Origin: Cyanidioschyzon merolae | Taxonomy: Eukaryota | Strand: one strand, 5' to 3' | NCBI GenBank assembly: GCA_000091205.1 | Contig: AP006499.2 | DNA length: 64,000 bases | Notes under the pieces: generated by a model | What the model was told of the DNA's origin: nothing | The model's database searches: none | What the model saw: the letters and a program-made list of their open reading frames with translations, nothing else | Program-made: the position numbers and the translations under genes | Shown here: positions 17,278 through 64,000 of the stretch, piece after piece | How positions within the stretch are numbered: position 1 is the first letter of the stretch | Layout of the letters: every line of letters begins with the position of its first letter

Positions 17278-18632
17278 TAGATTATAAAGTGGAACACTGA
17301 ATTGTTTGCTCTGTTCCTGCCTCGTGATTTTCACCGAGTTTTTTATTCAGAAGCATAGCATCGACATTCCACGTGCAGCGATTGGGGCTCAGGGATTTGC
17401 ATGCACTTTTAGGATTTTCGGTGATAACCCTCGGAGTAGTTCCTACCGCTTTCATAGCAGGAATTCGTTACGTGACTAGAAGCAAGACCATTCGCGACGC
17501 AATCCAGAATGGTTTGTCCAGTATCCGCTTTCGTTACCCGCTGTACGCGTGCGAGCCTCTGCTCTTCTGCTTCCCTTACGAACAGCATCCTGCAATCGCG
17601 CGTTCTCCAAGCTCCCGATCCGTCCGTTGCGAGGCGACTCGCGGGCGGGGCGATTCGGGCCGCCGCCTCCGCGAGTGAAGGAGAAGTCGACGGCGAGCCT
17701 GTGAGGCTTCGTCTCAAGCGCATACCGAACCCTCTCTGAACGCGTTACGTCAAATCATCGATTTCACTCCAGAGACAAATCCTGCCCTCTCCCTCTGTGG
17801 GCATCGACAACACACCATGCAACATCGTCAGCAACATACCTCTCATGCGAAAATACGCCCACAAGTGCTCGTCTCCCTTGTTTGCATTACAAAGGGCCCT
17901 GGAGTCGGACGTCAGGCATCGTAGCGATCGCTTCCAGCAGAGCGCGTGTCACCGCTGTGCACGAAGAAGGGAGCGCAGACCGATCGACATTGCTGGGCGT
18001 GCGCTCCAGTCTGGATTCCGCCCCCGGTACATACCTGATCCCGAACGACGTCGCTTACCGCAAATCCTCTGTCGAACGGGGCAGCGGTCGCTTGCATTCG
18101 CAGTCGATAGCGTGCTCGCCAAGGCGATCGCCCAGAACAAGTCCGTGCTCTTTGGGTACGGCATCCAAGGCAGCCTTTTGCAGCGGTCAGTGGCATGCAA
18201 GGAGCGATGACGCGCGCGTTCACGTGCCACGAGGCGGTGCTCGAAGGAGCACGTGTGTGGCGTCAGACCCATGGAAGCACCTGAACGCAGTCAGGCGTCA
18301 TCGCTGCGGCAGCCGCACCGAAGCTCCAGAGACGTGGGCTCCAAATGGCCAGCAACGCACGGATCGTAACGACCGCTTGTGGATGCAGTGCTTGCGGATG
18401 AACCAGAAACAGCGAACGCCGGACTCGAACGCTGGCATCACCGTATCTCGACTGCTGCAGCGCGGCTGACGCGAATGCAGACATCGGCATTTGTAAGCCC
18501 AGTGATCAGCGAGAGGGACAGGAATCAGTCGCACTCAAAGCCCGCACAGGCTGATGTTGATGAAAATAGATAGAAGGAGAGCGGAATGCTAGCGTTTTTG
18601 CGACCGAGTTAGCTAACTGGACCCATTCCATT
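17278..18632. repeat. Right copy of the 1.36 kb inverted repeat
   Basis: Reverse complement of 8833-10196 at more than 99% identity by eye. It is also homologous, though diverged, to the direct-repeat units at 36485 and 42863, in the same orientation as those. Confidence 0.85.
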
Positions 18633-22893: not shown

Positions 22894-23182
22894 GGCTTTA
22901 CGGAAAACTTGTTCCGCGAGATAGTATCGAATCTCCGCGAAATATTCGTAAGCATCACGATGAGGACAAGCGTTTCGCGCAGCGAATGGATAGCATCACC
23001 GTTTCCCTGATGTCTCGCGAGTTGGTTTCGACTTGTGGACGATGCCCGGCGAGCATGTCGTACACGAGGATTCCCCAAGTCTCGAGAGGACTCACGCGAG
23101 CTCGGCAGGAAAGCTTGCGCTCCGTCAAAATCCCTTCATCGTCCGCAGGCACTTCAGTACCATGTGAGCATGCCCCGGTTGA

Positions 23183-23560
23183 TTACCGTCCATGCAGCCG
23201 CGCATCAAGCGTCTGATCGGGCGACCCTCGTGATCTGGCAACGTGCAAGACGCTTCCCATAAAGTGCCCTCGTCTCTGATATTTCGTGCTTGTTTCGCAT
23301 CGAGTCGATATAAAACGAACAATGCCAGCGAAGCGATATACGCGCCACAGAGTCCGGGGACGGTTCGCGTACTCGTTGAGCGGTCGCTCCAGGAACGCGC
23401 GCTTCGACTTGAAGGCATGCCCCAACTGATTGGCACCATTAGTTTCCAGGGTATGTGGAACAAAATTCATCACGAGATTGTCGGTAAACTCCCAAAAGGG
23501 TTCAATCAACGTAGGCAGTGCACCCCGAAATACTTGATCGTGAATGTAGAGCTCGGTCAA
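23183..23560 (-). CDS. Unassigned protein-like ORF (125 aa); possibly an exon of a spliced gene
   Basis: ...ALPTLIEPFWEFTDNLVMNFVPHTLETNGANQLGHAFKSKRAFLERPLNEYANRPRTLW... has globular-looking composition but I recognise no family. Confidence 0.2.
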   Translation of the reverse strand: MTELYIHDQVFRGALPTLIEPFWEFTDNLVMNFVPHTLETNGANQLGHAFKSKRAFLERPLNEYANRPRTLWRVYRFAGIVRFISTRCETSTKYQRRGHFMGSVLHVARSRGSPDQTLDARLHGR

Positions 23561-26179: not shown

Positions 26180-26535
26180 ATATGCTGAAAAAGAAGAAAA
26201 AGAAACAAAGAGAACGACGAGTCAAGGGGCTTGCCCAACCGAACGACAACGAGACTGTGGTGGCATAGAGGGCACGAGTTCGGGGACTCCTTCCAATAGT
26301 GAGTTCACCCGGAGGCCCTGCACGCAGGGAGTTCGCGAAACGAGACTTCAACGCCATCATCAATGTCAAGAGATATGCGGCGCTGAGGACGACACCCGCA
26401 TAGCTGACGCGATCTGTCGTCGTGGGGCAGCTCCTCAGGCTCAAGATCTACAGGGAGATGCTGAAATCGATAGCATACGGCCGGTCGGAAAAAACTGGGA
26501 GGCGCCTGTGACTGGGTGTAAACATATACAATCTA
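26180..26535 (+). mobile_element. Fanzor-like 3' fragment, copy D (C-terminal remnant plus conserved 3' module only)
   Basis: ...KGLAQPNDNETVVA... then REFAKRDFNAIINVKRYAALRTTPA*. The 3' module follows: ...ctcaggctcaagatctacagggagatgctgaaatcgatagcatacggccgg...aaaaactgggaggcgcctgtgactgggtgtaaacatatacaat. Confidence 0.55.
26401..26535 (+). ncRNA. Candidate omega-RNA scaffold remnant (copy D)
   Basis: The conserved segment immediately 3' of the Fanzor-like stop, aligned to copies B and G. Confidence 0.25.
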
Positions 26536-28258
26536 CGGTAGAAAAAGGTTTTTTCGCTCCATGGACTGTAACACGGACAAGTGATTCTAGATTGCGTGGT
26601 TGTTATCGGGGCCTGAGAAAACGTCCACCATTACGCAACATCCTTCAAGTTGCTCCAGACATCATCTATGCTTTCCTTCGGAGATGCTGGATCGTTCTGG
26701 CGATCCTCTGGAAACCGAGTCCACTGTGAGTGCCAACAATGGCATCTTATGCACCAGTACAGACGCCAAACGGAGACAGAGCGGCTTTAATGTGCTTTTG
26801 TGAGCGTCGGTTCGAGGGCTGCTCGCGCGAGAGGTCCCCGTCACAAGCAAGCGCAAACGCACGTCACCGTGGATATAGTGCAACCGGGGAATCTGGTTCA
26901 CATTATCGACGTTTCACACCATGGGGAACCAGGGTTTCATCTCGCGTAGATGCCCTTCCAGGTGCCGTTGAGCCACGCCGTCGCCTCGTGCGGCGAATGC
27001 GTCGTCACTGTACGGATCCAATCCCCAGCGCTGATGGGAGGTGCTGTTTACGGTTCTTCGAATGTGCTTATATTCGGACAGAAGCAGTGATCCCTCGACT
27101 GATCTCCACTGGCAATAGCGAATGCTGGGAATTCATGTCCAATGTTTCAAGCGTATACCATAAAACATTTTATCCGGCATATGATGCCGTTCTAGCAGCA
27201 GTGAGAAAGCCGCTCTATGTTTCTCGAATTACTGCTCATCAAACGCGTAACGCGGCCGGCAACTCCCGTGTTCCATCGCACGAACTGATGCACCATGACG
27301 GTCTCGTGCAGCGTCCTCGCTCGTGACTGTGTCGCCTTTCATGTCCGACGACTTCTGCGCCAGGTACTCAAGTTCGCAGCAATGTGGACGATAGATGCAG
27401 AGGGCCGAATTCGCAAATCCAATCGACTTCGAGCGAGCAGATGCCGCGCATCCTGAATACCCCTGTTGTTCCGTTCTACTATCGCGCACAGATAATAACC
27501 GCCGACGATGAGCTGGTTTCCGATGAACGAAGCTTGGCGAATGCAGGCTCGGGCGGTGTCTTCTTCAGATACGCAACCCATATCCGAACGCTAGCTGTGC
27601 CGATCCCCGCGCAGAGTGCGTCTCTGTGCCCGTGAGCCTCTGTGAGGGCAAAAGTTTACGCGCTAGCGCTCGGAAGCTAACGCTCAGCCTTGCTTCTTCG
27701 TGTCTCCGAGCTCGATCTCGCCTCAATACATAGCATGCAGCGCTATAACTCTGTGGGCTTCTTCGCTTCGCCTGGAACGTCCTCGGCGTCTGCGAGGCCA
27801 CTGTTGAGGAACGCGGTCCAGAAAGCCTCTGCTGTCCCTGGTGCGGCGTCATCCGACGTTCGTTCAGCGAGTTCCATGATGCCGTCGGGATTCACATAGT
27901 CCTCGCCACTGAGCCACCAGAGGTTCGCGTGTTCGTCGGCCCCGCTCTGCGCACGACCAAACAGCGTTCGAGCGCTCTGTTTGTGTTTCGTTAGAAGGCG
28001 TCGTATGGCGGGCGGAGCGCTCGCAAAGTCTTCATCATCTGACGACAACTCTGCGCGCAAAAGCACCCTTGACTGTGAGCACGTTGACACTAGTACTGGA
28101 CGAGACCTTTGGCAACCCAGCGGTACGGACTGTGGCACGAACATGTTATCGATGCAGTACGTCCCAACAAAGAACAGTGTCATCGCCAGCTCTCGCGCGC
28201 CGTTCGAGCACGCGTGTTTACAGTTCTCGAACGTGCTTCGAGGACGGTTTTGGAAGAA

Positions 28259-28948
28259 ATGAGCGACGCTACGAACAACGCAGTTTTGGTAAGAAATTTG
28301 TCCCCCGAGGTGACTAAACAGACTCTCTTGGACTTTTTCTCGTTCTGTGGCGAAATCTCCGCGGTGAAAATTCGTCCATCCGTAGGGGAGGGGGGTTCTT
28401 CCAGCTCTGGGAGCCCAACGGAAGCGATGGAGGCCCTGGTGATTTTTGAAAACCAGTCAGCGAAGAAAACCGCTCTAGTCCTGGATTCTGCTACTCTTAA
28501 GAAGCGAAAGATTAGTGTTATGGATGCAACCGAGGAGCTCGTCTCCTCTTTTAAAGACGTCCGGGAAGTGGACCTCGCGAGGGACAGCACCGACGTTCCA
28601 GAGACTGCTACCGCTCGCCAGGAACGGCTGCAGGGCCTCCGCGAAGAGTTCGACCGCGCCATCAAACGCGCTTCCGACAAGCTCAGCGATTTCAATGAAA
28701 AGCACCGAATAACGGAAAAGGTCCAGGAGTTTGGCGACTTGACCAAACGCAAAACGCAGGAGATCAATGAACAGTACCGTCTAACGGAGCGAGCTCGCGA
28801 AGGCTGGCAGACCGTGCGTGAGAAAACACGCGAATTGGATGAGCGCTTGCATCTCAGCGAAAGTGCTCGGGACGGATGGAGATCGTTGAAAGCATCTGTG
28901 AGTAAGATTATGCAGAAAGATCGCGGCGGAGAGGTTGATAAAGCGTAG
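28259..28948 (+). CDS. RRM-domain RNA-binding protein (Vip1-like) with repeated C-terminal helical motifs
   Basis: MSDATNNAVLVRNLSPEVTKQTLLDFFSFCGEISAVKIRPS... has an RNP-type RRM (LVRNLS ... FCGEI). The C-terminus repeats (ITEKVQEFGDLTKRKTQEINEQYRLTERAREGW / QTVREKTRELDERLHLSESARDGW). The start is taken at the Met of MSDATNN rather than the longer track ORF. Confidence 0.6.
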   Translation: MSDATNNAVLVRNLSPEVTKQTLLDFFSFCGEISAVKIRPSVGEGGSSSSGSPTEAMEALVIFENQSAKKTALVLDSATLKKRKISVMDATEELVSSFKDVREVDLARDSTDVPETATARQERLQGLREEFDRAIKRASDKLSDFNEKHRITEKVQEFGDLTKRKTQEINEQYRLTERAREGWQTVREKTRELDERLHLSESARDGWRSLKASVSKIMQKDRGGEVDKA

Positions 28949-30100
28949 GGACTCAGGGAATTCGTACTATTGAGACCGCCTGCTCTGAAACTCGAGCGAA
29001 GTTGCACCAGCAATGGATTTGGGTTTCAAATCTGATCCTCCGATTTGTGATGGCGAAGCTCCCATATCTGTATCATACATATGGTACCGTGATCGGAAGG
29101 CTCTGGCTCTGGGACAGGAGCTACCCAGCAACAAAGTGTCGAACGCGAAGAGCCCAGCCTTCTGGCGCGGCACCGACACCCGTCACAATTTTCTGCGTGC
29201 GCGGCACTGCATTTCGCGTTGATTTACGTCACTGCACAGTACTGGACGAGGGGCCATGCCATCAGCGAAACGTCCACGGGAGACGACAGCTCAAATTGCG
29301 CGTCTTCTATGTATACGATTCTGGAACGCGGCTGGGTCGAATCACGACAGCGTACGGATTCTTTGTCTGTGGACACTTTTCGACGAGTGCTTTCGAGTGG
29401 CTGGAGAATTCGAACCCTAGTCGTGGAGATTCGTCGTTCTGGTATAGCCGTCCGAATGAGCTAGAGCGGTGCCTCTGACAGAGAAAGATGTGTGATTGCA
29501 TTCGAGCGGACGAGCTGCGGAGGTCTCCATGCCGGAGACCTAGCGCCAAACTGAGCACACAGCACAGACCTGCGGGCGCTCACATAGAGGAGAAGATTAC
29601 GCGCCGATTGCGCTCGATTTGCGAAACGGCGCCTGCAGATAAATGGTGGCATTCAGGGCTCGCGCTGTAACCACGGAGAATGCTCCGCCCAAACAGTTGC
29701 TACAGAGACACGAATACCCGTATCACGGGAGCAGATAGGGACTTGCGGTGTAGCTGTTGTATGAAAAGATCGTTTAGATTCATTTACTGTGCAGGAAGGC
29801 AGAACCAGAATCCCATCATGTAATCTAAAGAATACGATCGCCCTGGGGTTTCTGAGGTCTTTGGAGATTTTGCGTAGGCTCGCGCATGTTCTCCAGAAGA
29901 ACGATTGAACCGCAAATCTACGAACTGATAGCTTTACCTCGGAAATAAACGCCTATTCGCTACAAACACTACAGATCACAGTATGTATCGGACGCAAGAA
30001 CAGAGTGCTGGGAAACCATACGACGCGAGGTGGAGGACACAATCTCGACGAATTACATGCATCCCCAGGGCGAAGAACAACTTTTTACATCTATGGAGCG

Positions 30101-30159
30101 TATGGAAACCCATACGCAGACGCCGCGCAGCATTTTTGACCGGCCTCCTGCCACCGATA
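30101..30159 (-). ncRNA. Candidate omega-RNA scaffold remnant (copy H)
   Basis: Contains the conserved ...aaaaa.gctg.g.ggcgtctg... segment 3' of the RuvC-III remnant. Confidence 0.2.
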
Positions 30160-30790
30160 TCAGTTTTTACCCCAGCACACTTTGAGCTTGAGAGTCTGGG
30201 CCACGAAGTTGAATCGCGTCGGATCCTTGGGTCTCGTCTTCTGCACCGCACACTGTCTGATATTAACAGCGACTTTAAGTCTCAGTTCATAAACTTAATG
30301 CGCGTATTGCCCCTGGCTGAACTCACCAGTGGACGGACTGCTAGAACTCGCGCCTTCTGTGCCACTACGGTCTCTTCAGTGTTCCGTCGGGCACACACTT
30401 TTTCCCGCCTATTTCCACTCTTCCTCTACGTCACATGCTCGGCTTCGCTCGATGCTAGGTGACAAGACAATTTTGTCTGTTTTTTCTTGAACCCGGCGAC
30501 ATCGGTACTCCAGGATCGTCGACTTGCTTTTCCATAACTTTCCTTTTCTAATTTTTGTCTGAAAAAGAACGCTTTTTGAACGCTTCTTTTATAGACTGCA
30601 AAAAACCAATCGAATACACTTGTTTGAGGTTTGGAACTCAAATGAATTGAAAGACTGTACTTTGCTTCGACCCCAACGCAAATACAACTTTTTCCGGTAG
30701 AACAACACGCTAATTGATCGGGATCATGTTTCCCTCCAACGGCGACATGCGCGTCGTGTCTCATGTCTGCCCGATCTCCCAGGTGCGCTC
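30101..30790 (-). mobile_element. Fanzor-like partial copy H (3' half: internal segment, C-terminal remnant, 3' module)
   Basis: The minus-strand translation reads ...ETVVAQKARVLAVRPLVSSARGNTRIKFMN* and ...LKVAVNIRQCAVQKTRPKDPTRFNFVAQTLKLKVC. The 3' module reads ...ggtcaaaaatgctgcgcggcgtctgcgtatgggtttccatac. Region 30490-30790 matches the internal segment of copies A, C and E. Confidence 0.55.
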
Positions 30791-31019
30791 ACCGCCGCGA
30801 CGCATGCACCGCGCGAGACGGTACTCCGATCGATGAAGGACACGTGTCCGATGCCGCACTGGCACATGCGTGTTCTCACCAGCGCACTGCAGCTGCAATC
30901 CAGTGTCCTAAATCGGAAACTCACGTAGAATTATCTCCTGCTATAGGCCATGTCGCTGGTGCCCATCGCAGTACCGACCTGACATACAAGGAGATGTTGG
31001 GGCCTCCCACAAAAGCCCT

Positions 31020-31300
31020 GCAACGATTCCAGCAAACGCGTAGCGTTCTCAGCGACACACGCTTGTGTGGATGAGGTACGCATCACTCTACTCAATAGGA
31101 ATTTCATCAGTTTTATTGATCGTAATCAAACAATGTACGGCAGGGTTCCCGAACACGGATATGCGTTTATTGCCTATGCTTGTTATGCATGCTGCACGGA
31201 CGCTGGAGTATGGAACTGATTCGAATTCTGCTGGTATCCTGCGTCATGGGCTGGAACTGGTGGCAGTTCAAGTCATTGCCATGTCGTCGTCGTGCGTCGG
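31020..31300. repeat. Interspersed repeat R2, copy 2
   Basis: Aligns with 15040-15330 (see that entry). Confidence 0.7.
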
Positions 31301-31989
31301 ATTGTATTCGCTGAAAGGAAGCCGCAGGACTTGTGTAACGTATTCAAGAAGAAACTCACGATGCTTTTATTCGATCTATTTCCAGACACTACCGCTCCCG
31401 AGCCTAAATTTCTGGACAAGCGTCAATATACTGTCCTTCAATCCCCAAACTGCCTATTATCAAAGCCAGCGGGGCGACGAGGGGCTAAACGAGCCCAAGA
31501 GCCACCGACACCAGTTTTACGGCTGGGCACCTTGCTGAGCACATCTTCCAGCGTTGCCGTTGTGCCGAAAGGGTTTGACTTCGGGCCCGCACCGCTCAGC
31601 TTATCTTTCCACTGCCCCTGCAGGTCCCAAGGCTTTCTTTGCTTGGGCACACGATCAAGATAAGACTCAGAGCCGTCCCGAGGGGTCGCGCGGCCTCCGA
31701 TGCCGCCAGCCCGAGCTCTGGCAATTGTGCGCTCCGCAGAAGGCGAACGGGGCTTCGAGTTGCCCTGTCGCGCTAGAACGTCGCTCCATGCAAGCGGTTC
31801 ATTGTTCAAGAGATCTTGCAGATCTGCCGCACCTCTCACGAATACCTGGACAGCTATCTGCGAACAAGACACCAAACCGAGCGCTCCGAAACTCAAGGAA
31901 GCCATGTCACCACAGTCGAGTCCGAACAAGGGTAAGCGAACGGCGCCTCGCGAAGCGTGACCTGGGAGGTGCACTGCGAGATCTCGAAC

Positions 31990-32069
31990 GAATGTTGACA
32001 ACTTGACCACAGACGCCTCCTAGAATTTTTGGACCGGCCACCTACTACTGGTTCCAACTTATTCTTGCA
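31990..32069 (-). ncRNA. Candidate omega-RNA scaffold remnant (copy E)
   Basis: The reverse complement reads ...ccaaaaattctaggaggcgtctgtggtcaagttgtcaacatt, aligned to copy G ...aaaaagcctgggaggcgtcttctggtggatatgcatatac. Confidence 0.25.
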
Positions 32070-34450
32070 TCATTCCACCTTGAATGGTTCTCCCACAAAA
32101 TTCTCTCTTGTCATCTCTGGAAGTCTTTTTTCCATCACCACACATTTCCTGATATTGATTGCGGCGTTAAAGTCTCGGTTCACAAACTCCATCCGTTTCT
32201 TGCCATCATTGATTGTACTTACTAATGCAAGTCGCCCATGAACGTTCGCCCTCCTTTCCATTTGCTGTCCCGTCAGCGGTCCGTATTTTTCATATCCTCA
32301 GGGCTCCGCTGGCACTTTTTTCATCTCGAATCTCTGAAGTGTGCATCCCAGTTCATGGTGTATATACAATGCTCGGAACTCATCGATCGGTAGCGGAACG
32401 AAACGCCTTGCGCACTCCTTGTACGTTCTCGCCGGTGGAGCTGGTGTAGTCCCTTTTTGGGTCTTCCAGCGTCCTGCTCCGTTTGCCACTACGAGCCTCT
32501 GACGTTCATCCTCCTTCAAGCCACTCAACTGATTGAAAAAGTTGGCAAACGCCCGCTGCTTCCCACAATACAGGTTCATTCGCAGACGAGCCCACCGAGG
32601 CTTTGTATACTCTTTCCACAGCGCATCCCAATGAGCAACGCGACCTTCCATGAATTTCCGAAAAGCTTCAAAGTCCGCTCCTCGACTCGTCACCTTGCTC
32701 AAGGCCTCCAGGTGCTCTTTCAGTTATGCGTTCCACGTCTCGATTTTATTCCTTGCATTCATGATTCTGGAATCTCGATAGTTTCTTGCTCTCGAGAACT
32801 TTAAAATACTCATGCCTTTCTGAAGTAAGTTGCCGTGGATTCCATCTTCCGCACGCTTGGGTACTGCGGTGGTTATGATACTTGTGCCCCAGGGTCCGCG
32901 CCAACGACAAGGTCGTTATCCTGCACTTTCTGCGTCGCAGAATCCGCCTCCTTCTCATCTTCATGCTTCGTTACGGGCGAGGCCGAGCATGGAACAAGAC
33001 GATCCGCCTTCAGGCGCCGACGGTGTACACACATGGATACCCCATCGGTTTCGATCACCCCAGCGAATACCTTTTGTTCGCTGACTTTCAAACGTTTGAT
33101 TTCGAAGATATTTTTCTGGTACTTCTCCCGGTTGACACCGGTGACCTCCTTCCTGCTAACCTTGAACTCCGGACAGATCTCCCTCATGATGCCATGAAGG
33201 ACTGCGGAATCGATGGTCACGAAATGTGCCCTGATGTTGCACAACGGAACCACGTTGAAGCGCTTCTCCATTAGGAACGCTTCCGTCTCTCAGACGCTTC
33301 ATTGTTCCCGCGATTCAGCTCCATCTCCGCCTTGGGTTCGAGCTCTCGGTCTGGGTGCACGAAATAGCGCATAATTAGGGGATATCATCATTTTTTCACC
33401 TTTTTTCATATCTGATACCTTTTCTGCTGGGTTGACCGGCCTCAAGGGTGCACGGTGCTCATGAATAGTCGCACGGATTATAGAATCCTCATTCGTGCAC
33501 CTGCGTGATGTCTTCTTGTCGACGAACTCGATCTCCTGTTCAAGCTGCCGATCGTCCGTCATCCCATTGGTGATGGCCCATCTTTCCTTCGCGAGAGAGA
33601 CCCGGTTGGAGTGCAAACACGGCGCATATCATGAAGCCCTGGAGGTTCATGGTTAAACGGTCTCCAAGTTCGTTAGGTACCGCATGGCCCCGTGGGTGTA
33701 AATATTCCAGTCCCTCTGAATCGAGTACCGTAGAAGCTGTAGAAGGGATGCTTTTCGTGGAGGGCATGCACCCGCTCATTTCCCCTCGAGGTTTCCCCTG
33801 TGGCGAGCACCAGGTGGCGAAGAAGGGTCCTGCTGAAAAATTCTTCCGGAACCTCGGCTGTTTCGATGTCGGCCACGTCTTCATTCATCTCCTTCACCAA
33901 ATGCATTAGCCCTGACGAAGCCTTTATAACACTCATGGAGTAAGACGCAACACGGTTTCTGGGAGTCTCTTGCAACGCTTCCTTGGACGGATGCTTGATA
34001 TGTTTAAGATGGCAGGCTTTGACAACCATCACGTCGTTGTGCCGTCTTTCTTGCAGCCTTTGACGTCGGGCCTCCTTCATTTGCTTCTTTGTCTCGTCCT
34101 GTTCCTCTTCGCACTGGACTGTGTGTTCGTTTGTATCCGCCAGCTGACGACACTGGGCCTCCAGGAGCCTCCACTTTCACTCGCATAACTTTCCTTTTTA
34201 ATTTTTTTTCTGAAAAAGAACGCACCTTGAATGCTTCAGGTATAAACAGCGAAAAATCACTTGAATACACTTACTTGAGGGTTGGAATACGATTGAACTG
34301 AAAAGCATACTTTGCTACGACTTCAATGCAAATACACCGCGTGCAGCAGAACAACACGCTCTTGATACCGATCGCGTTTCCGTTCAAGAGCAGCATGCGC
34401 GAAGTGTCTCGTGTAACTGGCTGATGTCTCTGGTGCACGTGTCCAGCCCC
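31990..34450 (-). pseudogene. Longest Fanzor(TnpB)-like copy (E, about 2.4 kb), frameshifted. It has a RuvC-I-like GxDxG motif, a candidate RuvC-II, and RuvC-III D-x-NAA-x-NI.
   Basis: Minus-strand ORF pieces run in order. 33271..32873 ends ...[15 protein letters not shown] (RuvC-I-like). 32702..32298 reads ...VPLPIDEFRALYIHHELGCTLQRFEMKK... (candidate RuvC-II Glu and degenerate zinc-finger region). 32261..32070 reads ...GKKRMEFVNRDFNAAINIRKCVVMEKRLPEMTRENFVGEPFKVE* (RuvC-III). The 3' module is at 31990-32069. Region 34160-34450 matches the internal segment of copies A, C and H. The short copies lack the central roughly 1.9 kb present here. Confidence 0.55.
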
Positions 34451-35419
34451 CTACAGAAAAAAAACAGAGACTCACGACTAACTGGCAACGATATGACAAT
34501 TTCTTTCCCCCCTCTAAGGTAAACGTTAAAAGGCGAAAAGGTTTCCATATTGTCGAAAGTTTATTTTATAGGCGAAACGTCCCGCGAGCCGGACGTGTCT
34601 GCCAGACCAGTGCTTCATGCGACCCCAGTGGAAGGTGCTTGCTGGAAACCCGAGCAACTCGTGCGAAATGCAGTTTATTATGAGACTAGGAGCGGGTATG
34701 CTGCGTCAGGGCGTCGGCCTGGTCGCAGTTATCTCCTTACATATCGCTTGGCGCTGCCGCAGGCACTAGGTCTGTCTGCAGAGCTTGCAGGCTCCCAGAA
34801 AGATTATGTACTCTGGCTCTGTATCGGGAAAAGCGCTCCTCGATTCGATGCCCTCTGTGGTACGGTAACGCGGTTTTGTCTCCGCGATCCATCTGTTCCA
34901 GCGGTTTAGGCGCCACTACGGGTGCTCGTGGTAGGTACTCGCGCACGCTAGAACGTAAAAACCGACCAGTATGTCCGAGATGAAGTGTAAGAGATGGATC
35001 TTAGTCGGCCGGGGCGGGAAGGGCAGCATGATGAGCGCTTCCTCGAAAGCCACTACCCATCCATCCCGAAATCTGGGATCCATGGTAAATGTAAACGTTT
35101 GTCATCGAAAAAAAACAGATCGAAATTAATATGCAATTCACCGTTTAGATCGAAGACGAATTGTCTCTAGTATGTATATTCTTTATTGAAGAGTGCAATG
35201 AGGACTGCATGGTTCCTTCAGGTCAGTCATAGCAGGTCACTCAGGTGGTTGACGAACACTGAAAGAGACCAACAGATGCGCTACGCGCCGAAAACTGATA
35301 TTCTTCAGGCCTGCTTGCGGTCAATGATAGAAAATGGTCCGTTGATAATGCTACCGAAGAGCAAAAGCTATGATAATAGACGTCAAGTAGGTGTCTCTGT
35401 TTCTCACTAGTTTGTTCAT

Positions 35420-35713
35420 GTGGTCCAGCATACAGGGGGATACAGTCGCAAGAAAGTCCTAGTTCACGAACGGTCATCTTCCAATGAAATCGCAACGACA
35501 GCGTTCCTGGAGCTCAGCGATCGGGACAGAGTACAGGAACGTCGGGTTGTTTCAGTTGATGAGATTTCCTTTCGACAAAACGGTCGGAGCATGTATAGGC
35601 ATTTGTGGGGAAAAGAGCCTGTTATATATACGATCGAACTCGAAAATAACTCGGACCTCATTATCTGTTCTAGCTGCAGTCGATTCACTCTCCGGCCTCA
35701 GTCCCGCTCGTAG
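35420..35713 (+). pseudogene. Tc1/mariner-like (DDE_3) transposase remnant (copy B)
   Basis: ...GGYSRKKVLVHERSSSNEIATTAFLELSDRDRVQERRVVSVDEISFRQNGRSMYRHLWGKEP... fits the Tc1 pattern, with FSDE-like VDEISF and downstream Y.W..G. It is truncated, with no second Asp or Glu block. Confidence 0.55.
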
Positions 35714-35874
35714 AGAAGGCTCATCCAACAGCACCAACCATTCCGTCGAATCATTGAAGACTTTTCCCTCACGTCTCGCGACGTTTTTCCACTGAAAAAC
35801 GTGGTATTTCAGCATTACCGTCGCGGTCGAGTTTTTGCCGATTCTGTCGGGGTAGAGTTGGTTTTCATTTCTCC

Positions 35875-36342
35875 GTGAGCTCCGTGATTCGGTCCCATCG
35901 AAGGAGAGTTTTCGATCGAAAAAAGGTAATGATCTCTCCACTGGGCGAATTGATGAAGCGTCCAGCACACGATGACACCGCGGACAATGTCGTCTCTCTT
36001 CTGCAAGTCTTCCTCTTTCCGGGAAGGTCCTCATTTAGGCACATTCAAAAGTGCGCCCATTCGCAGAAAATGAGGGATGAACTGAGGTGTATATTTCAGA
36101 AGGTCGAGATTGAGAGAAGGCAGCGGAGCGCTTCGGTGATAGGAAAGCACAGAGGGCTGACAGAGCACCACATGACGCTGAGGGTGCGAATTCGAGGACT
36201 ACTTGCACTGGTGAGTTCAACCAGCAGCAAAAAACGCATGAAGTTCGTGAATGGTGAGTTTAACACTGAGAAAAATACAAGGAGATGTGCATTGTTGAAG
36301 ACGAGACGCGAGGAGCTGACGCGAGCGAACTTTATGGGGTAG
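35875..36342 (+). pseudogene. TnpB/Fanzor-like C-terminal remnant (copy B)
   Basis: The ORF ends ...SSKKRMKFVNGEFNTEKNTRRCALLKTRREELTRANFMG*. This is the degenerate D-x-NAA-x-NI context (NGEFNTEKN), conserved with the other copies. Confidence 0.5.
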
Positions 36343-36443
36343 CCTCTCGGGTTCGAGGTGTACAAGGAGAAGCTGAAGCCGATCGCAGGGTGCCGGCCAA
36401 ATACGGTTTGAAGGCGCCTGCCGTTGGGCGAATATACATACTC
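36343..36443 (+). ncRNA. Candidate omega-RNA scaffold remnant (copy B)
   Basis: cctctcgggttcgaggtgtacaaggagaagctgaagccgatcgcagggtgccggcc...gaaggcgcctgccgttgggcgaatatacatac aligns with copies D and G. Confidence 0.25.
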
Positions 36444-36484
36444 AAAAGTCGTGGAATGTTGTTCGTTATACTGGAAAGAATACT

Positions 36485-37747
36485 CGTAGTCAAACCATGA
36501 GGGCTCACCAACGCATGGGTACTTTTAACAACATCAAGCGTTGTTTTGGGACGGCCTCTTCCACTCCTTGCCGCTGGATTTCGTTACCTCACCGCCACCA
36601 AGATGAGTCGTGACGCCCGCTACAAAGCGCTCCTAAAATAACCGATACCACTATGCAGCGCATTCATAAACCACTGCGCGCTTCTCCTTTTCTTACGAAC
36701 AGCACGCTCAAATACCCCATTCATCTGGCTCTCCGTCTAGCGGTTCCATGGCAGCTCGTGGGCGCACCAGATCGCGCCCCTATATCGCGACGACGAACAC
36801 CCGACGTCGGCCGTTCACGAGTGTTCTCAGACACTCATGCCGAAAGCCCAACGGGGTTCTCACGTCAAATACTCCTCTCCGCTCTCATCGCACGCCCCCC
36901 TCTCTTCGCGCCCGTCGACGAGCCGGCACTCAACAGCGACACCGTATGTCTCTCCAGCTGCAGGCTCGCTACGGCTCCCGCGTCTCCCGTTTCCATGGGA
37001 AAGGGGCCTTGGACGCGGGCGCGCGCCGTCGCAGCGGCCGCCTCCAGCAGAGTTTGCGTCACCGCTCTGCACAGCGGGAGCGTAGACGGATCGAACCAGC
37101 TGGGCTGGATATCTCCAGCGCGGATCTCCCTCTTGGTGCCCCGCCTCATCGTGGTCAGCATTGCGTTGCACGGATTCTCCCGCGGACTGGACAGCGTGCG
37201 CGTGCGCATGCGCCCGCCCAGAATACGCGCCGTGCGGATCGCCCCGAGCGAGCCCGGGGTCTGTCGGTACCGCACGAGACGCCGAGACGGAACGAGGGCG
37301 TCGAGGCGACCCTTCTGCATCCGCCAACGACATGTATCGGGCGACGAGGGAGGCCCTCGGTGGATGAGCTTTGTCGGACATGTTGTCACACCTTACCACA
37401 GCCGATCATGGCAGCTACGTTGTGCGTCTCGAGGCTGTACACAGCGAAGATGGCAATGGCAAGCAAAGCATATATCGTGACGACCGCCTCTGGATGAACT
37501 GTTTCAAGAACACCTGGTGGCAGCGAAATCGGGACTTGAACACTGCCATCAGCATCCTTCAACAGTCGACAACGGACTCCGAGGGAGCGGAGCGTCCAGC
37601 ACGCTGACTGGCGGACATAAGAAAGGAAAACGGAGCATTTGCAGAAAGAGTCTGCGAGGGCTGGTGTGCATGACAGTACGATGAAATCCAAACCTGTGCG
37701 AGTACGCCCGTGTCAGGATGCCTGTTCCATTTCATCCCGACATGCGT
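36485..37747 (+). repeat. Left copy of a 1.27 kb direct repeat (same GC-rich repeat family as the inverted repeat at 8833 and 17278, diverged)
   Basis: Near-identical to 42863-44147. The ORF pair 36653..37480 and 43030..43878 is identical except for a 21-nt indel (...GGPRWMSF... versus ...GGPHAPWSGPRWRSF...). It starts cgtagtcaaaccatg and ends ...catcccgacatgcgtg. Blocks such as gtcaccgct.tgcac..gggagcg.agac.gatcga......ctgggc are shared with the inverted-repeat unit. Confidence 0.85.
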
Positions 37748-42368: not shown

Positions 42369-42862
42369 AAGATGAGGTGCTCGGGCCCCAGTCCGTCCAA
42401 AAAGCTTTCAAGCAGGAACGTATGCAGCACAAGCGGTACGACGAAGCAGCCTGCCTTTCGATCTTGAGCGCTGATGCGTACCGTTCGGCGAAAACTCGCG
42501 CCCGCCACGGGATCGGCAGAGGCGCAGTGTGCACCGAACACTCGCGTTCGCGCCAAGCTTGCATGCGGCGTGCGGATGTCAGCGCATCGCCTTCTGAGGC
42601 GAAGTACGACACGCGTATTCGGTTCTCTTCAGCACCTGGACCGGTTTCAGCGCCGCGGATCAAACGCAATCAGGATCGAAAGTCACAGAAAAGGCCTCGA
42701 GGGCCCGTATGGACCATGAAATGTCCGAACCTAAGGCACGATAACTGACGTGAACGCCAGAGCCCGACACAGCAGGAAGAAAAAATCCAGCTTTGAGCTA
42801 CTCCTTCTGATCCTGCATTTCCATTTTTCTCGAAATGTTTTAGATGAGCAGTGCCGAGGTTC

Positions 42863-44147
42863 GTAGTCAAACCATGTGGGCTCACCAACGCATGGGTACT
42901 TTTAACAACATCAAGCGTTGTTTTGGGACGGCCTCTTCCACTCCTTGCCGCTGGATTTCGTTACCTCACCGCCACCAAGATGAGTCGTGACGCCCGCTAC
43001 AAAGCGCTCCTAAAATAACCGATACCACTATGCAGCGCATTCATAAACCACTGCGCGCTTCTCCTTTTCTTACGAACAGCACGCTCAAATACCCCATTCA
43101 TCTGGCTCTCCGTCTAGCGGTTCCATGGCAGCTCGTGGGCGCACCAGATCGCGCCCCTATATCGCGACGACGAACACCCGACGTCGGCCGTTCACGAGTG
43201 TTCTCAGACACTCATGCCGAAAGCCCAACGGGGTTCTCACGTCAAATACTCCTCTCCGCTCTCATCGCACGCCCCCCTCTCTTCGCGCCCGTCGACGAGC
43301 CGGCACTCAACAGCGACACCGTATGTCTCTCCAGCTGCAGGCTCGCTACGGCTCCCGCGTCTCCCGTTTCCATGGGAAAGGGGCCTTGGACGCGGGCGCG
43401 CGCCGTCGCAGCGGCCGCCTCCAGCAGAGTTTGCGTCACCGCTCTGCACAGCGGGAGCGTAGACGGATCGAACCAGCTGGGCTGGATATCTCCAGCGCGG
43501 ATCTCCCTCTTGGTGCCCCGCCTCATCGTGGTCAGCATTGCGTTGCACGGATTCTCCCGCGGACTGGACAGCGTGCGCGTGCGCATGCGCCCGCCCAGAA
43601 TACGCGCCGTGCGGATCGCCCCGAGCGAGCCCGGGGTCTGTCGGTACCGCACGAGACGCCGAGACGGAACGAGGGCGTCGAGGCGACCCTTCTGCATCCG
43701 CCAACGACATGTATCGGGCGACGAGGGAGGCCCTCACGCGCCATGGAGCGGCCCTCGGTGGAGGAGCTTTGTCGGACATGTTGTCACACCTTACCACAGC
43801 CGATCATGGCAGCTACGTTGTGCGTCTCGAGGCTGTACACAGCGAAGATGGCAATGGCAAGCAAAGCATATATCGTGACGACCGCCTCTGGATGAAATGT
43901 TTCAAGAACACCTGGTGGCAGCGAAATCGGGACTTGAACACTGCCATCAGCATCCTTCAACAGTCGACAACGGACTCCGAGGGAGCGGAGCGTCCAGCAC
44001 GCTGACTGGCGGACATAAGAAAGGAAAACGGAGCATTTGCAGAAAGAGTCTGCGAGGGCTGGTGTGCATGACAGTACGATGAAATCCAAACCTGTGCGAG
44101 TACGCCCGTGTCAGGATGCCTGTTCCATTTCATCCCGACATGCGTGT
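42863..44147 (+). repeat. Right copy of the 1.27 kb direct repeat
   Basis: See 36485-37747. The spacing between the two copies is 6378 bp. Confidence 0.85.
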
Positions 44148-54528: not shown

Positions 54529-55113
54529 TGTCCAAAGTCTCCTGTTGATTAGTTACTCGTGAAACACAGAGAGGACCATCCGCCCTGAGAAACCAGAACG
54601 CAAAGCCGCTACTGTGCTGGGCGCTCAACAAAACGGTGGCGCACGCGCATCAGTGACGTGTGTTTCCCGGTGCGACGTTGCGCGGTATTTAGTGCAGAGC
54701 GGTCGAGCTTCGGTAACACAACTGTCTTATCTATGAGGACACTCGCATTCTATGCTGGGAGCGCCCAGAAGCGCACTTCTCGTCTGAACCGGACGTAAGG
54801 GCATATGGTGTTGTATCGTCTGGTGCGCTGCGGTCGATAGTGCGCTTGACGGCGTTGGACGATGTAAGGCGCACTTGAACGTGCCTGGTCGCGGTTTCGA
54901 CTGTCGACTCAGCCTCTATAACGTCTAGGCGTTTTCTCTTGTTTTGTAAGTCGCGGAAAACGTACAATAGACAACGCAGCTCCATAGCACAATACACACA
55001 AATTAGTCGAGCGCACGGTGGGAGGTCGGTTGCGTCTCGACGGCAGCGAGCAGGCTGCACGCTTTCTGGAGCGAAAAGTTTCGCGACCATAGAATGTACA
55101 CAAATAAACCTAC

Positions 55114-55542
55114 TCACAGAAGACACCCAGCCTTTTTTGACGGACTGCATGCTATCGGCTTCAGCAACCCCTTGCACAGTTTGAGCCTTAGCGGTTGCGC
55201 GACAAAGTTCGCTCGCGTCACCTCCTCGTGTCTTGTCTTCAGCACTGCACATCTTTTGGTATTGATGGCGACGTTACCGTCTCGGTTCACGAAATCCTTG
55301 CGTTTATTGCCTCTGCTTGAACTCAGCATTGCAGGGATTGCTAGAGGTCCTGCCTTCTATGAAATCAAAGTCTCGTTATCGTCTCGTTGAGCAAACACAT
55401 TTTCTCGCCTTTTTCCGTTCTTCTTCTTTATCACTCGCTCTTCTTCGGTTGGTGGTCGGCGTGAAGAGGATCTTTTTTTTCGTTCCTTTTTTGTGGAACC
55501 CGGCGACACCGGGCCTCCAGGATCCTTGACGTCCGTGACCAT
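55114..55542 (-). pseudogene. TnpB/Fanzor-like C-terminal remnant (copy C)
   Basis: ...KKERKKRSSSRRPPTEEERVIKKKNGKRRENVFAQRDDNETLIS*, then in another frame MLSSSRGNKRKDFVNRDGNVAINTKRCAVLKTRHEEVTRANFVAQPLRLKLCKGLLKPIACSPSKKAGCLL*. Confidence 0.5.
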
Positions 55543-55860
55543 ACCTATTCCTCGGATTTTTTTTATTTGAAAATGAACGCACTTCTTTATGCCCTTAGAT
55601 GAGGGCCTTCCTGGAGCGAGCAGGATTTGCGGAACAAAAACTACTTGTGCCCCGGTGTGTCACCGTGCAGAACGCTCCAGGGACTCGCCCAGTGGAGCGA
55701 TCATTATGTTAAAGGATACAAAACACTCCTTCGATGAGGTTGAAACACGTAGAGCACGGAGGAATGAAAAGCAGCGCTATCTGGATAGAATCTGCAAAAA
55801 CTCGAACGCATCGGAAATGGTGCAATGCCACGTTTTCCAGTAGAGGGAAGTCGGCGGACG

Positions 55861-56382
55861 TCAGGGAAAAGTCTTCAATGATTCGAATTTGCGGGTGCTG
55901 TTGTATGAGTCTCCTGTACGAGCGAAACTGAGGCCGTCAAATGGATCAACTGCAGCTAGAATAGACGATGATGTCCTCGTTCTCCTCGAGATCGATCGCA
56001 CATACAACGAGCCCCCTCTTTTTGAATACCCATATACGCTTCGGCCGTTTCGTCCAAAGCAAGTCTCATTTACCGGCGAAACAAACCGCCATTCCCGTGC
56101 TTCATACCGATCGCGACGTTTCAGGGATGCTGTCGTAGCGATTTCGATGGACGATGGTCGTGCATGAGCTAGGACTCTTTTTTTGCGACTGTATCCCAGT
56201 GTTTTCAGTACCACATGAACAAGTTTTTGAGAAACAGATACACTCTTGGCGGCTACTATCGTCGCTTTTGCCTCCCGCAGGGTGATCAACGGGTCGTATT
56301 TCCACCATGGACCGCAAAGAGTCTTTAAGAATATGGCTCTTGGCGCGGAGCGCGTATCCTGTGATCTTTCAGTGATCCTCAA
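55861..56382 (-). pseudogene. Tc1/mariner-like (DDE_3) transposase remnant (copy C)
   Basis: ...SQKLVHVVLKTLGYSRKKRVLAHARPSSIEIATTASLKRRDRYEAREWRFVSPVNETCFGRNGRSVYGYSKRGG... FSDE is degenerate, reading VNETCF. Confidence 0.55.
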
Positions 56383-56935
56383 CTATCTGAGAACTGCCGT
56401 ATGACTGACCTAAAAGAAAAATACGGTCCCCCGTGCACAATGAAGTAAGGAATATATATCCTCCAGGCAGTTTGCCTTCGAATTATACGGTACGATGTAA
56501 CTTGATATCGATCTGCCGCTCGTACTGCGAAAAAGCATTCGATGACACGCATCAGCGGTGGAACAGAATTGACCTGAAAGTCCGCAGAAATCGAACAATC
56601 TTTCAAGGTTTTGTCCATGATTCTAAAATGTGATATATTGGTCCATAACGCATTGCACGCCAAGCGATCGCGAGCGCCGCTCCCCATGTAACGAGCACCG
56701 ACGCGCGTCTGACGCCGAGCCCGGGCCAAAACTCGAACCGGTGCTGCGCAGCGACGGCCGCGACACGATGTGGCGAATGCCGGCGTATTCGTCGACACTT
56801 TGTAGACGCTCTAGCGCAGGCTTTACGTAACGAACTTTTTCTGATCGAAAACCAAAACTCAGTTTGATCGTACCTTGTGCACGCGTGGACAGTAAAAACT
56901 TGTATTGGGACCGATAATTGTCATAGGACGCGACC

Positions 56936-61230: not shown

Positions 61231-62272
61231 CCTGTAAGGCGATCTTGGCGGTGCAGCACTGAAGGGTTTCAAGGCCCTCGGTTAAATGTCTCAAAGTTCC
61301 GCGTACTAGGCGCGGCGCACGGAAGGCGCGCAGTCGTGTTCGTACCCTAGACTGGTACAGGCTGTGAGAATCTCTTCTCTATCATGCATCCGTCGCAGTA
61401 CGTTCTTTAAGGAAATGCATTTCTATCAAAGGACCTCGGTGGTCCTGGTAAACGAGTAGGGCGATGGTTCCGGAAAAGGCTGAAGGGCGACGGTGCTGTG
61501 CCAGCGCCGACCGCCTTCTTCGTACTAGCGCCCGCTTCTGGCTCTGTAACGCTTGCCTTAGCACTAGCAGTCGCTGACGTCGTGCTCGCTGCACCATTTC
61601 CAGTGGATGCTCTGTCATGTGTTTGCACGCTCTGTGCGGAAGCCGTTTTTGGTGGTTTCTCCGCCGCACTTGACGAGGACCCCGCAGTGCTACCGGCATC
61701 CGTTGGTACCCGAGGCACTACTCCAGTCGTTTGTTTCCTCTCAAATGCTGGCAGCTGGCCGTTGCGAATACGACTGCGAGCTGAATCAGCTCCGGGCATT
61801 GGAAGGCGCTTCTTGCCAAGTTTGCCGCCTCGAGTCAATATCCAGCCGTCGCCGCCCCAGACTCGGTCTGCGCGAAGCACCAGCAACGGGCGGCTGTTCT
61901 GCGCAGAGATCGAGCTCCGCCAGCTAGTCTCGTGAAGTGCATGCGCGCAAAACCCGATGACACCTATTGAACCGAGTGTTCCAAAGGACTGCAACGCACT
62001 CAACGCAAAAGCTTGGCACTGCATGGAGAGGCTCAGACACCCTGAAGGAATTGATGAATAAAGATCAAGCGCAGCTAACTGTGGAGCCGTAGCGGCGGTC
62101 GGCGCTCTGCGGCACACGCGGCAGTGGGTAGTTTAAGAAAAACAACAAAGCGGACATTCTCTTGCGGTGTCCGTGTATAGGGTCTTTCATCTCAATTTCG
62201 TTCCGCCTCTGCTACGTTCTGTAGAAGAAGGTCGAAATTATTGTGTAATTAACCTTTTAGATCGTAGACGAA

Positions 62273-62692
62273 TTGTCAGTAGGGTACGTATTCTTTACTA
62301 AACAGTCCACGGAGAACTGCATTCCTTCTTCATGTCAGACATTCCACATCACGCAGATGGTTGCGGAACACTGGAAGACAGGCATAGACGCGCTCTGCGT
62401 CAAGAACCGATATTCTCCACGTGTGCTTCCAATCAACGGTAGAACACGATCCTTTGATCACCTTTTCCGGAAGTACAAAGCGACGATAATAGATGCCACC
62501 AGCGCCTCTGTTTCTAAACAGCTTGTTCATGTGGTCCAGAATACACTAGGATACTGTCGCAAGAATGTCCTAGTTCAATCACCGTCATCTCCCATGGAAA
62601 TCCCAGTTACAGTGCTCCTTGAACATCGAGATCGGTATGAAGCACAGGGACGTGGGTTTTTTTCCTCAGTCAATGAGACTTGCTTCCGATGA
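62273..62692 (+). pseudogene. Tc1/mariner-like (DDE_3) transposase remnant (copy G)
   Basis: ...SKQLVHVVQNTLGYCRKNVLVQSPSSPMEIPVTVLLEHRDRYEAQGRGFFSSVNETCFR... fits the Tc1 helix-turn-helix and first DDE-block pattern. Confidence 0.55.
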
Positions 62693-63002
62693 AACAGTCG
62701 GAGAAGATACGGATATTTGCGGAGCGGGGCGCCCGTTCCATATACCATCGAATTCGAGACGAACGACGAAATCATCATCCGTTCTAGTTGTAGTGGATTC
62801 TATTTACGGCCTCAGTTTCGATCGTGGGGAAGGCTCATACAACAGCACCAACCATTTTGTCGAATCATTGACGATTTTTCTCTAACATCTGGCGACGTCC
62901 TTCTACTGAACAACGTGGCATTTCACCAGCCCCCTCGCGGTCGAGCGTTTCCCGATTCTATCGGGATAGAGCTCGTTTTCATTCTTCCGTACGCTCCGTG
63001 AT

Positions 63003-63486
63003 TCAACCGGAACGAAGCAATCTTTTGTATCCTGAAATGCAACGATTGCTCCACAGCGAGATTCGCTGAAGCGTCCAGCACATGGTAAAACTGGGCCACA
63101 TTATGTACCATTTGCGCAAGTGCTTTTTCTTCCGGGAAGGGCCCCACCAAAGGCCATAAAGAAGTGCACTCACTCTAAAAGAATTAAGGGATGAGCTGGG
63201 ATGCACACTTCAGATGCTCGAGATTGAGAAAAGACTGCAGAGCGCTTTGGCGACAGAAATGTACGAAGACATGATAGAGCACCAAATGGCACAGAGGGCC
63301 TAAGTGCGCAGATTCCTCGCATAGGTGAGTACAAGCGGAAGCAAGAAAGGCATGAAGTTCGTGACCCGAGATTATAACGCTGCTATCAATATCAGGAGAT
63401 TTGCGGTGCTGGCGACGAAATCCCGGAAGCTGACGCGAGCTTCCTTTAGAGGGTCAGCATCTCAGGCTCGAAGTATGCTGGGATAA
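63003..63486 (+). pseudogene. TnpB/Fanzor-like C-terminal remnant (copy G), the best-preserved RuvC-III motif in the window
   Basis: atgaagttcgtgacccgagattataacgctgctatcaatatcaggagatttgcggtgctg translates to MKFVTRDYNAAINIRRFAVL, matching the D-x-NAA-x-NI RuvC-III consensus of TnpB/Fanzor/Cas12. The upstream part is frameshifted. Confidence 0.55.
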
Positions 63487-63556
63487 ATACTGAAACCGAT
63501 AGCAGGCAACCGGTTGAAAAAGCCTGGGAGGCGTCTTCTGGTGGATATGCATATAC
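63487..63556 (+). ncRNA. Candidate omega-RNA scaffold remnant (copy G)
   Basis: The conserved segment ...aaatactgaaaccgatagcaggcaaccggttgaaaaagcctgggaggcgtcttctggtggatatgcatatac lies immediately 3' of the Fanzor-like stop. Confidence 0.25.
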
Positions 63557-64000
63557 CCCCACATGGCGGTGCGAAATTTTTTATTTCACTGAGGGTATGT
63601 ATTTTGATGGACTTAAATAGAAGAAGCGGACACGATCGCAGTCGACGCGGGCGTGAATGCTGCGAACCCCGTATTTCCATCCGCCCTTCTGCTGTGCTAA
63701 GCTGTGCTGCGGAAAGAACAAGGTCCCGTGTCAAATGAACACGGAGTCGCGTTGGCGGCGACAATTTGGAAGAGGTGCAATGCTTTCCTCGAATACTCTC
63801 GCCGGCTTTGTGAACGTATTCGGGCCGGTGGCGGGCCAAGCTGGAAGCACGCGTGCGGCGCTTCGAAGCGCAACGGTACGGCTCAGCAGGGTCTGCACGG
63901 ACGCGGTCTCACGGCGAAACCGGAAGCAAGCCACCTGTATGAGGCCGCGCTCGCGTGCGCGACTCTTTATGGGCACCGATACGAACCCAGATGGTGAAGA

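Follow-up and report, generated by a model that had tools for sequence, protein, structure and literature searches.

The 64,000-nucleotide stretch of Cyanidioschyzon merolae DNA analysed here (the window) contains seven decayed copies of a Fanzor1 element, one of subfamily S1 (copy E) and six internally deleted derivatives of subfamily S2 (copies A, B, C, D, G, and H; Table 1). A conserved segment near the right end of each copy (63487–63556 in copy G) was described in the original prediction as a non-coding module and a candidate omega-RNA scaffold. The best explanation, which we regard as likely, is that this segment is a decayed C-terminal coding tail and that the omega-RNA candidate for the Fanzor1 family lies downstream of it. 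For the family an omega-RNA is plausible, although it was assigned to the wrong place, the best candidate lying outside the flagged coordinates. A concrete omega-RNA candidate is now located for a Fanzor1 family known since 2013; the elements in the window are themselves relics and an ordinary finding.

Organization of the Fanzor1 copies

Two ORFs in the window match BAM82017.1 (pantothenate kinase) and BAM82022.1 exactly, and the DNA is nuclear and from C. merolae strain 10D. Self-BLAST of the window reveals a dispersed repeat, ~70% alike, at all seven of the sites originally listed, and a seven-way alignment of the 3′ portions has a mean column identity of 67%. Together with tblastn searches using a near-complete relative of 689 aa, these comparisons bear out the claim that a mutually alignable segment is present at all seven positions, and that it directly adjoins a RuvC-III-like remnant (RDFNAAINI). 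Pattern searches with the exact motifs that had been given yield only two matches each at up to three mismatches because the copies are too diverged, and BLAST and alignments were used instead.

All seven copies contain stops, frameshifts, or large deletions, and none has an intact ORF. In copies A, C, D, and H the 5′ leader and first ~40 Fanzor codons are joined to the C-terminal part, and these are therefore internal-deletion derivatives; tblastn mapping shows that every deletion derivative in the window still has a minimum of ~220 nt of 3′-terminal sequence. Copy E is the most complete, with several stops and frameshifts but recognisable RuvC-I (GADPG), RuvC-II (DEF), and RuvC-III (RDFNAAINI) motifs. 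The first part of its module matches as claimed but the remainder does not, as similarity to the S1 consensus stops at 32010, ~30 nt before the ancestral stop, and the S1 3′ UTR is absent. Copy E is truncated or replaced at its 3′ end (31921–32010, minus strand), so the candidate scaffold is missing from it; a comparison of the 3′ flank with the first 82 loci fetched, a set without L083 and L084, turned up no relative. Every window copy is a relic and none can be functional, because the ORFs are broken, copy E is without the S1 UTR, and the S2 tails are ~50% diverged.

Table 1. Fanzor1 copies and associated transposase remnants in the window; tblastn matches are to the 689-aa relative.
Copy	Feature	Coordinates	Strand	tblastn match	Description
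A	Fanzor1 C-terminal remnant	15656–15938	−	15801–15938	Module 15693–15769; tail 15656–15692
A	DDE_3 remnant	16177–17149	−		Upstream of Fanzor tail
B	Fanzor1 C-terminal remnant	36025–36483	+	36025–36420, from ~residue 560	~aa 560 onward; module 36343–36443, then tail
B	DDE_3 remnant	35117–36061	+		Upstream of Fanzor tail
C	Fanzor1 C-terminal remnant	55058–55440	−	55132–55440	Module 55094–55160; tail 55058–55093
C	Fanzor 5′ start and DDE_3 remnant	to 56521 (DDE_3 55563–56515)	−		Upstream
D	Fanzor1 C-terminal remnant	26269–26570	+	26269–26508	Module 26401–26535; tail hairpin 26536–26570
E	Near full-length degraded Fanzor1 (~3.0 kb)	31950–34985	−	32001–34048, query residues 1–684 of 689	CMe-1A type, subfamily S1
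E	Module-equivalent	31990–32069	−		Similarity to S1 consensus ends at 32010
G	DDE_3 (Tc1/IS630-like) remnant, degenerate	62229–63183	+		Fused upstream of Fanzor tail
G	Fanzor1 C-terminal remnant	63193–63486	+	63193–63543, from ~residue 567	~aa 567 onward; RuvC-III RDYNAAINI; interrupted by stops
G	Module	63487–63556	+		Remnant of last ~23 ancestral Fanzor1 codons; reads LKPIAGNRLKKPGRRLLVDMHIP
G	Post-module tail	63557–63597	+		...GGCGGTGCGAAATTTTTTATTTCACTGAGGGTA; to end of inter-copy similarity
H	Fanzor1 C-terminal remnant	30059–30270	−	30184–30270	~aa 631 onward; module 30101–30159, then tail
H	5′ leader and N-terminal remnant	on to ~30788	−

The copies resemble the published C. merolae Fanzor1 family CMe-1A, which has ~150 copies that are ~80% identical to their consensus, is ~3 kb long, lacks terminal inverted repeats (TIRs), and has undetermined target-site duplications (TSDs) (Bao & Jurka 2013, PMC3627910). 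Host, Fanzor1 protein, and length (~3 kb; copy E 31950–34985) agree, the copies are old and ~70–80% alike, there are no recognisable TIRs or TSDs, and the 5′ ~600-bp part is common to another repeat. The match is to the published description and not to the Repbase consensus, and there are differences: six of the seven copies constitute a more diverged subfamily with ~50% amino-acid identity in the tail, and the S2 copies are internally deleted and partly fused to DDE_3, an arrangement not in Bao & Jurka for C. merolae.

Assignment to Fanzor1

The earlier description of the repeats as Fanzor-type is supported by profile comparisons and RuvC motifs. A search of 1.84 billion representative proteins returned 1273 relatives, many of 600–700 aa, and a family profile composed of P0016 and 50 relatives (51 sequences) matches the solved Fanzor1 structures of Parasitella PpFz1 (9cf0; E=1.7e-20), Spizellomyces SpuFz1 (8gkh; E=7.4e-14), and Guillardia GtFz1 (9cer; E=7e-7). 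The Fanzor1 identity came only from this broader profile; a narrower profile of the C-terminal half alone has no match in the PDB, and Pfam and NCBIfam searches with C. merolae-type proteins have none, with PF07282, the C4 zinc ribbon (TNB) domain, matched in five of the 51 distant relatives. The family has the motifs VGADPGNTNI (RuvC-I), VDEFRTS (RuvC-II), and NRDFNAAINI (RuvC-III), corresponding to GADPG, IDEFRA, and NRDFNAAINI in copy E, and only RuvC-III remnants are left in copies A, B, C, D, G, and H. The stretch between RuvC-II and RuvC-III reads HHELGC...KC and is not an obvious C4 zinc ribbon. On these profile and motif matches, the window repeats are assigned to the Fanzor1 family. 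Three metagenome relatives (L005 2963–4852, L028 2978–4849, and L006 895–2349) carry an acidic ~24-aa unit (xxKxEExKEAxPxxQxVxDNDxVV) just before the RuvC-I GADPG, in one to six tandem copies according to locus.

The conserved 3′ segment is a coding tail

A protein search with copy E identifies 236 hot-spring metagenome relatives, and those covering the end read ...FVNRDFNAAINIRRCAVLEKRPPELTRENFVGQPLKVELYEKKLEAVVGGRSKKTGRRLHVSWRRFV followed by the stop codon. Eighty loci were fetched, and 74 distinct 3′ regions were aligned with the seven window copies (81 sequences); the DNA consensus has TAG eight codons after GRRL. The string reported as the hallmark of the module (...cgatagcaggcaaccgg...gaaaaagcctgggaggcgtct...) encodes PIAGNR...KKPGRRL, and the copy G module is homologous to the terminal ...KLEAVVGGRSKKTGRRLHVSWRRFV of the metagenome relatives, which a stop follows. 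As judged from these alignments, the flagged segment corresponds to the last ~23–25 codons of the ancestral Fanzor1 ORF. It is not non-coding sequence following a Fanzor stop, since the metagenome ORFs run through the homologous stretch and end eight codons past GRRL; the window copies therefore stop prematurely, as a result of later decay.

The two halves of the module appear to differ in their distribution. Distant Fanzor1 proteins (n=51; 30–45% identical) typically end ~41 residues past RD.NAA, with ...RPxxLxR...L...VG[KR]xI[KR]x at the C-terminus. By alignment the first half of the module (L-x-P-I/V-x-G-x-R-x-K-K) is the counterpart of the C-terminal L...VG[KR]xI[KR] across distant Fanzor1 proteins, and a basic extension confined to the C. 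merolae-type lineage makes up the second half.

Conservation of the module is unexceptional. Among ten S2 copies (A, B, C, D, G, H, and four metagenome copies), mean pairwise identity is 0.63 in the module and 0.61 (elsewhere given as 61–64%) in the upstream remnant from RuvC-III to the module start, which contradicts the proposal that the module survives specially where the protein is destroyed. The copies are alike through descent from one element family, all keeping the 3′ terminus.

Codon-position diversity, determined with nucleotide diversity from 61 S1 copies, also bears on the proposed scaffold. Along the final 860 nt of coding sequence the ratio of diversity at position 3 to that at positions 1 and 2 is mostly 1.3–4.9, and 2.1–4.9 in nine of the 11 earlier 22-codon windows. 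It is 1.44 and 1.23 in the last two windows, although position 3 diversity is not reduced (0.235 and 0.237); the ratio falls because positions 1 and 2 vary more. The tail is thus a protein segment under weak constraint whose synonymous sites show no visible sign of being held back, which argues against an overlapping RNA. The flagged segment is a poor candidate for the scaffold itself, as a coding tail without extra constraint at its third codon positions; the related suggestion that it is an extension of the ancestral C-terminus overlapping a scaffold is upheld by the metagenome ORFs as to the C-terminus, but not as to the overlap, third positions being as variable as elsewhere. A conserved stretch past the first in-frame stop in decayed Fanzor or TnpB copies can be the original C-terminus, and constitutes a trap for annotation.

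Right and left ends of the elements

The right end of the elements is placed by loss of similarity only, and lies farther out than first proposed. Similarity was said to stop abruptly after a catata(c) block marking the right end, but identity of ~50% persists for ~41–45 nt more before falling to background: mean pairwise identity in the S2 set is 0.51 in the 46 columns following the module and 0.15–0.30 further out. The S2 consensus continues past the module with ...ACnCTCTATGGTnGTGAAAnGTTTTTCGTTTCACTGAnnATA, and the end named earlier is ~45 nt early, similarity in copy G ending at ~63597 rather than 63556.

Left ends vary among copies, which enter a shared upstream repeat at different points, and a 5′ end is placed for copy E only (~34985). 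No terminal inverted repeats are consistent across copies, the sole pair (14 nt, 86%) being in copy G, and the left ends hold no inverted copy to partner the right-end motif GCCACTACTGTAC. A right-end-like 13-mer at window position 54605 is a chance match.

A Yellowstone hot-spring metagenome contig (Ga0078972_1008137, locus L083) matches 12.7 kb of the window at 99.16% identity (contig 5833–18544, window 22271–34985) and also carries copies D, H, and E. Collinearity breaks at window position 34985, where copy E has its 5′ end and copy B is still ~130 nt away; this is the only break in synteny, and the comparison provides no empty-site allele. At two metagenome loci (L074 4219–4736 and L068 4574–5091) an S1 and an S2 copy are arranged tail to tail with right ends ~10 nt apart, which could reflect chance nesting or insertion beside an existing right end.

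A candidate omega-RNA between the stop and the right end

The premise that Fanzor and TnpB scaffolds are encoded at the 3′ end and run up to the right end of the element agrees with the literature, as does their occasional overlap with the ORF end (PMC10432273). SpuFz1 has a 75-nt scaffold from stop to right end with a 14–15-nt guide (Saito et al. 2023, PMC10432273), and Fz1 omega-RNAs are generally 75–150 nt long and have a 7-bp SL1, the rest being variable (PMC11423790); an SL1 of seven base pairs is seen in the GtFz1, SpuFz1, and PpFz1 structures. If the C. merolae family is like SpuFz1, its omega-RNA scaffold would most likely be encoded in the interval from the ancestral stop to where similarity ends, and the transcript would read into the flank, supplying the guide. 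The family has a constrained non-coding block in this interval and, at its 3′ end, an excess of folding specific to the sense strand; the correspondence with an omega-RNA is one of position.

In the S1 relatives of copy E, ~62 nt separate the stop from the collapse of similarity (GGCGGGTTTCTCGCC-ACTACTGTACAC-CGCCGGCGTCGTTCGACTTTCGAACGGCGTTYGGTG). Within this UTR, conservation is strong in the block GGCG-loop-CGCCACUACUGUACA, and a further hairpin is predicted. Diversity is 0–0.2 in GGCG and CGCCACTACTGTACA and 0.5–0.6 in the SL1 loop between them, with S1 third codon positions at ~0.25 for comparison; this is the pattern of a stem under constraint whose loop is free to vary, with a constrained motif after it. 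Predicted SL1 is UAG+GGCG paired with CGCC+(A)+CUA around the variable loop, for a total of 7 bp interrupted by a single bulge; 38–40 of 41 copies can form the four inner GGCG/CGCC pairs and 31–36 of 41 the three outer UAG/CUA pairs. The downstream hairpin has at least two pairing forms (CGTTCGA-CTT-TCGAACG and CGTTTTTC-TTTT-GAAAGGCG), and a third variant, CGTTCTA...TAGAACG, pairs too. The element ends with CGGTG, complementary to a CACCG just past the conserved motif. A scaffold of ~62 nt would then comprise SL1, the strongly conserved sequence ACUACUGUACA(C), and a second hairpin in which CACCG pairs with the terminal CGGUG.

In S2 the post-module segment of ~45 nt is predicted to form one long imperfect hairpin, which would be the scaffold counterpart. 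The copy G segment 63557–63597 is accordingly predicted to be the S2 counterpart of the stop-to-right-end segment, and a better scaffold candidate than the module.

Comparison with published Fanzor omega-RNAs, proposed with the original prediction, favours the S1 UTR and not the flagged module. In position, conservation, and predicted structure the UTR is consistent with the published Fz1 outline, and resembles SpuFz1 in having two predicted stem-loops followed by variable flank, in a family whose profile matches 8gkh. ORF-less derivatives that keep the 3′ region occur in both, as at the SpuFz1 'ghost' loci of Spizellomyces punctatus, which retain the ends and the omega-RNA region but have lost the ORF (PMC10432273). 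The C. merolae family differs in having no 30-nt inverted repeats that could be found and an unrelated sequence.

A literature search found no report of a C. merolae omega-RNA. It is possible, though we put it forward tentatively, that CMe-1A-type Fanzor1 is active or recently was so in strain 10D and the Yellowstone populations that hold ~400 relatives, using a compact omega-RNA of ~62 nt (a 7-bp SL1 including the stop, ACUACUGUACA, and a variable SL2) followed by a guide from the flank, with ORF-less and transposase-fused derivatives acting as ghost guide donors. If true, a thermoacidophilic eukaryote would supply a Fanzor system whose minimal scaffold is defined. The host lives in hot acid and is amenable to genetics, so an active system could interest genome-editing work.

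Predicted RNA structure and alternative roles for the 3′ terminus

Structure was evaluated with z-scores and with pair counts in shuffled and slid alignments; there are two SL2 types that differ by register shifts, which sequence alignment mis-pairs. The check proposed for the seven window modules, covariation and conserved structure, gave nothing significant, and six of them fold no better than shuffles: module plus tail has z-scores of +0.56, −0.43, −0.70, −0.09, −0.51, and −0.62. Copy C (55045–55160, minus strand) has the sole strong value in the window (z=−3.81); its folding excess is a long stem with sequence past the end of inter-copy similarity, and may be fortuitous. The S2 consensus fold has no covariation term, and the S2 terminal hairpin is no better than shuffles (174/500). 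RNAalifold on S1 keeps only the 4-bp GGCG/CGCC stem, with zero compensatory pairs. In the 41-copy S1 alignment 76.0% of SL1 and SL2 cells pair compared with 74.8% in shuffles, 11 of 500 of which reach the observed value, and the covariation score is reached by 32 of 500, indicating weak covariation. Searches with Rfam 15 have no match in the window at gathering score, and four loci that carry good S1 3′ ends have none at E≤1.

The strongest folding signal is not confined to the UTR, and it raises a model in which the scaffold starts ~100 nt inside the ORF, module included, as a long rod (GCAGUAGUAGGUGGC pairing with GCCACUACUGU, and GAGGCGUCU with AGACGUUUU) followed by a terminal hairpin and guide. 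Such a rod is the predicted fold of the 147-nt S1 consensus (−65.4 kcal/mol; z=−4.5), and the terminal 150 nt of 16 copies has a mean z of −2.27 in the sense and −1.01 in the antisense orientation, compared with −0.77 to +0.08 for seven other 150-nt windows (five upstream and two downstream) and with −1.22 sense, −0.97 antisense, and −0.11 flank for the S1 UTR alone. The rod pairs are 82–93% formed across the 41 copies, with 80.8% of cells pairing compared with 79.7% when shuffled (2/500) and a covariation score above all 500 shuffles; related sequences alone can produce such a result, however, and the long-range helix strands are nearly invariant and carry no covariation information. Retention of at least ~220 nt of 3′ end by all of the window deletion derivatives would suit an extended scaffold, and scaffolds starting inside C-terminal coding sequence, as the S1 rod needs, have precedents in ISDra2 TnpB, which is the closer parallel, and in GtFz1, whose omega-RNA overlaps 17 codons (PMC10432273, PMC11423790). 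In contrast to those systems the overlap here is only predicted, the third codon positions of the tail are no more conserved than elsewhere, S2, to which six of the seven window copies belong, lacks the complementary sequences that the rod pairs with, and the window copies other than C have z-scores no lower than −0.70. We consider a scaffold that reaches into the ORF unlikely.

The conserved UTR block could instead serve transposition or mRNA 3′-end formation. The terminal block and hairpins may be DNA-level transposition signals, like IS200/IS605 subterminal hairpins or Helitron ends, and not, or not only, an RNA scaffold; CMe-1A has neither TIRs nor detectable TSDs (PMC3627910) and no convincing TIR was found here, either end of the element has palindromes (GGACACGTGTCC and GCGCTCnGTGAGCGC, for instance, close to the 5′ end), and the terminus is kept in all non-autonomous derivatives. 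Yet the right-end motif is without an inverted counterpart at the left end, and the many predicted G-U wobbles and far better folding of the sense strand (mean energy of the terminal 150 nt −52.6 kcal/mol, against −38.8 antisense) favour a single-stranded sense molecule. We consider this reading unlikely; it is compatible with an omega-RNA, and the two overlap in IS200/IS605. In algae, poly(A) signals include elements of the UGUA(A) type. The block (…ACUACUGUACA…, with UGUAA in L042, L044, and copy D) contains UGUA and lies 15–30 nt past the stop in a 62-nt UTR that must hold its own 3′-processing signal, so it might be a polyadenylation signal with incidental hairpins. This reading seems very unlikely, since it leaves unexplained both the invariant GGCG/CGCC stem with its free loop and a terminal hairpin whose closing pairs fall exactly where similarity ends.

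Transposase remnants and neighbouring repeats

In copies A, B, C, and G the Fanzor tail is immediately preceded by ~950 bp that translate, in the same orientation, to a degraded transposase of the DDE_3 (Tc1/IS630) type. The conceptual translation of the copy G remnant matches PF13358 at 18.3 bits (E=0.0023), below the cut-off of 28.6, with a visible motif ...LLLNNVAFHQ...GIELVFILPYAP.FN..E.... This arrangement suggests a transposase-Fanzor chimera or a composite family. Fanzor1 is carried in the Tc1/mariner transposons PGv-1 and PUl-1 (Bao & Jurka 2013, PMC3627910), which the four copies resemble in the order and orientation of the two parts. They differ in that the DDE match is below cut-off, neither mariner TIRs nor TA duplications are seen, and the junctions resemble internal deletions or chimeras, not an intact two-gene transposon.

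A repeat of ~600 bp precedes the Fanzor gene at window positions 34450–34985 and 30480–30790, and at metagenome loci L010, L018, L007, L046, L056, and L040. Its entry point varies by locus, perfect palindromes such as GGACACGTGTCC and GCGCTCnGTGAGCGC are abundant in it, and it is probably TE-N2_CMe of Bao & Jurka. Near-identical segmental repeats flank two of the copies, a direct pair beside copy B (36484–36700 and 42861–43077; 99.5%) and an inverted pair beside copy A (17271–17400 and 10073–10202; 97.7%); both are much younger than the Fanzor copies.
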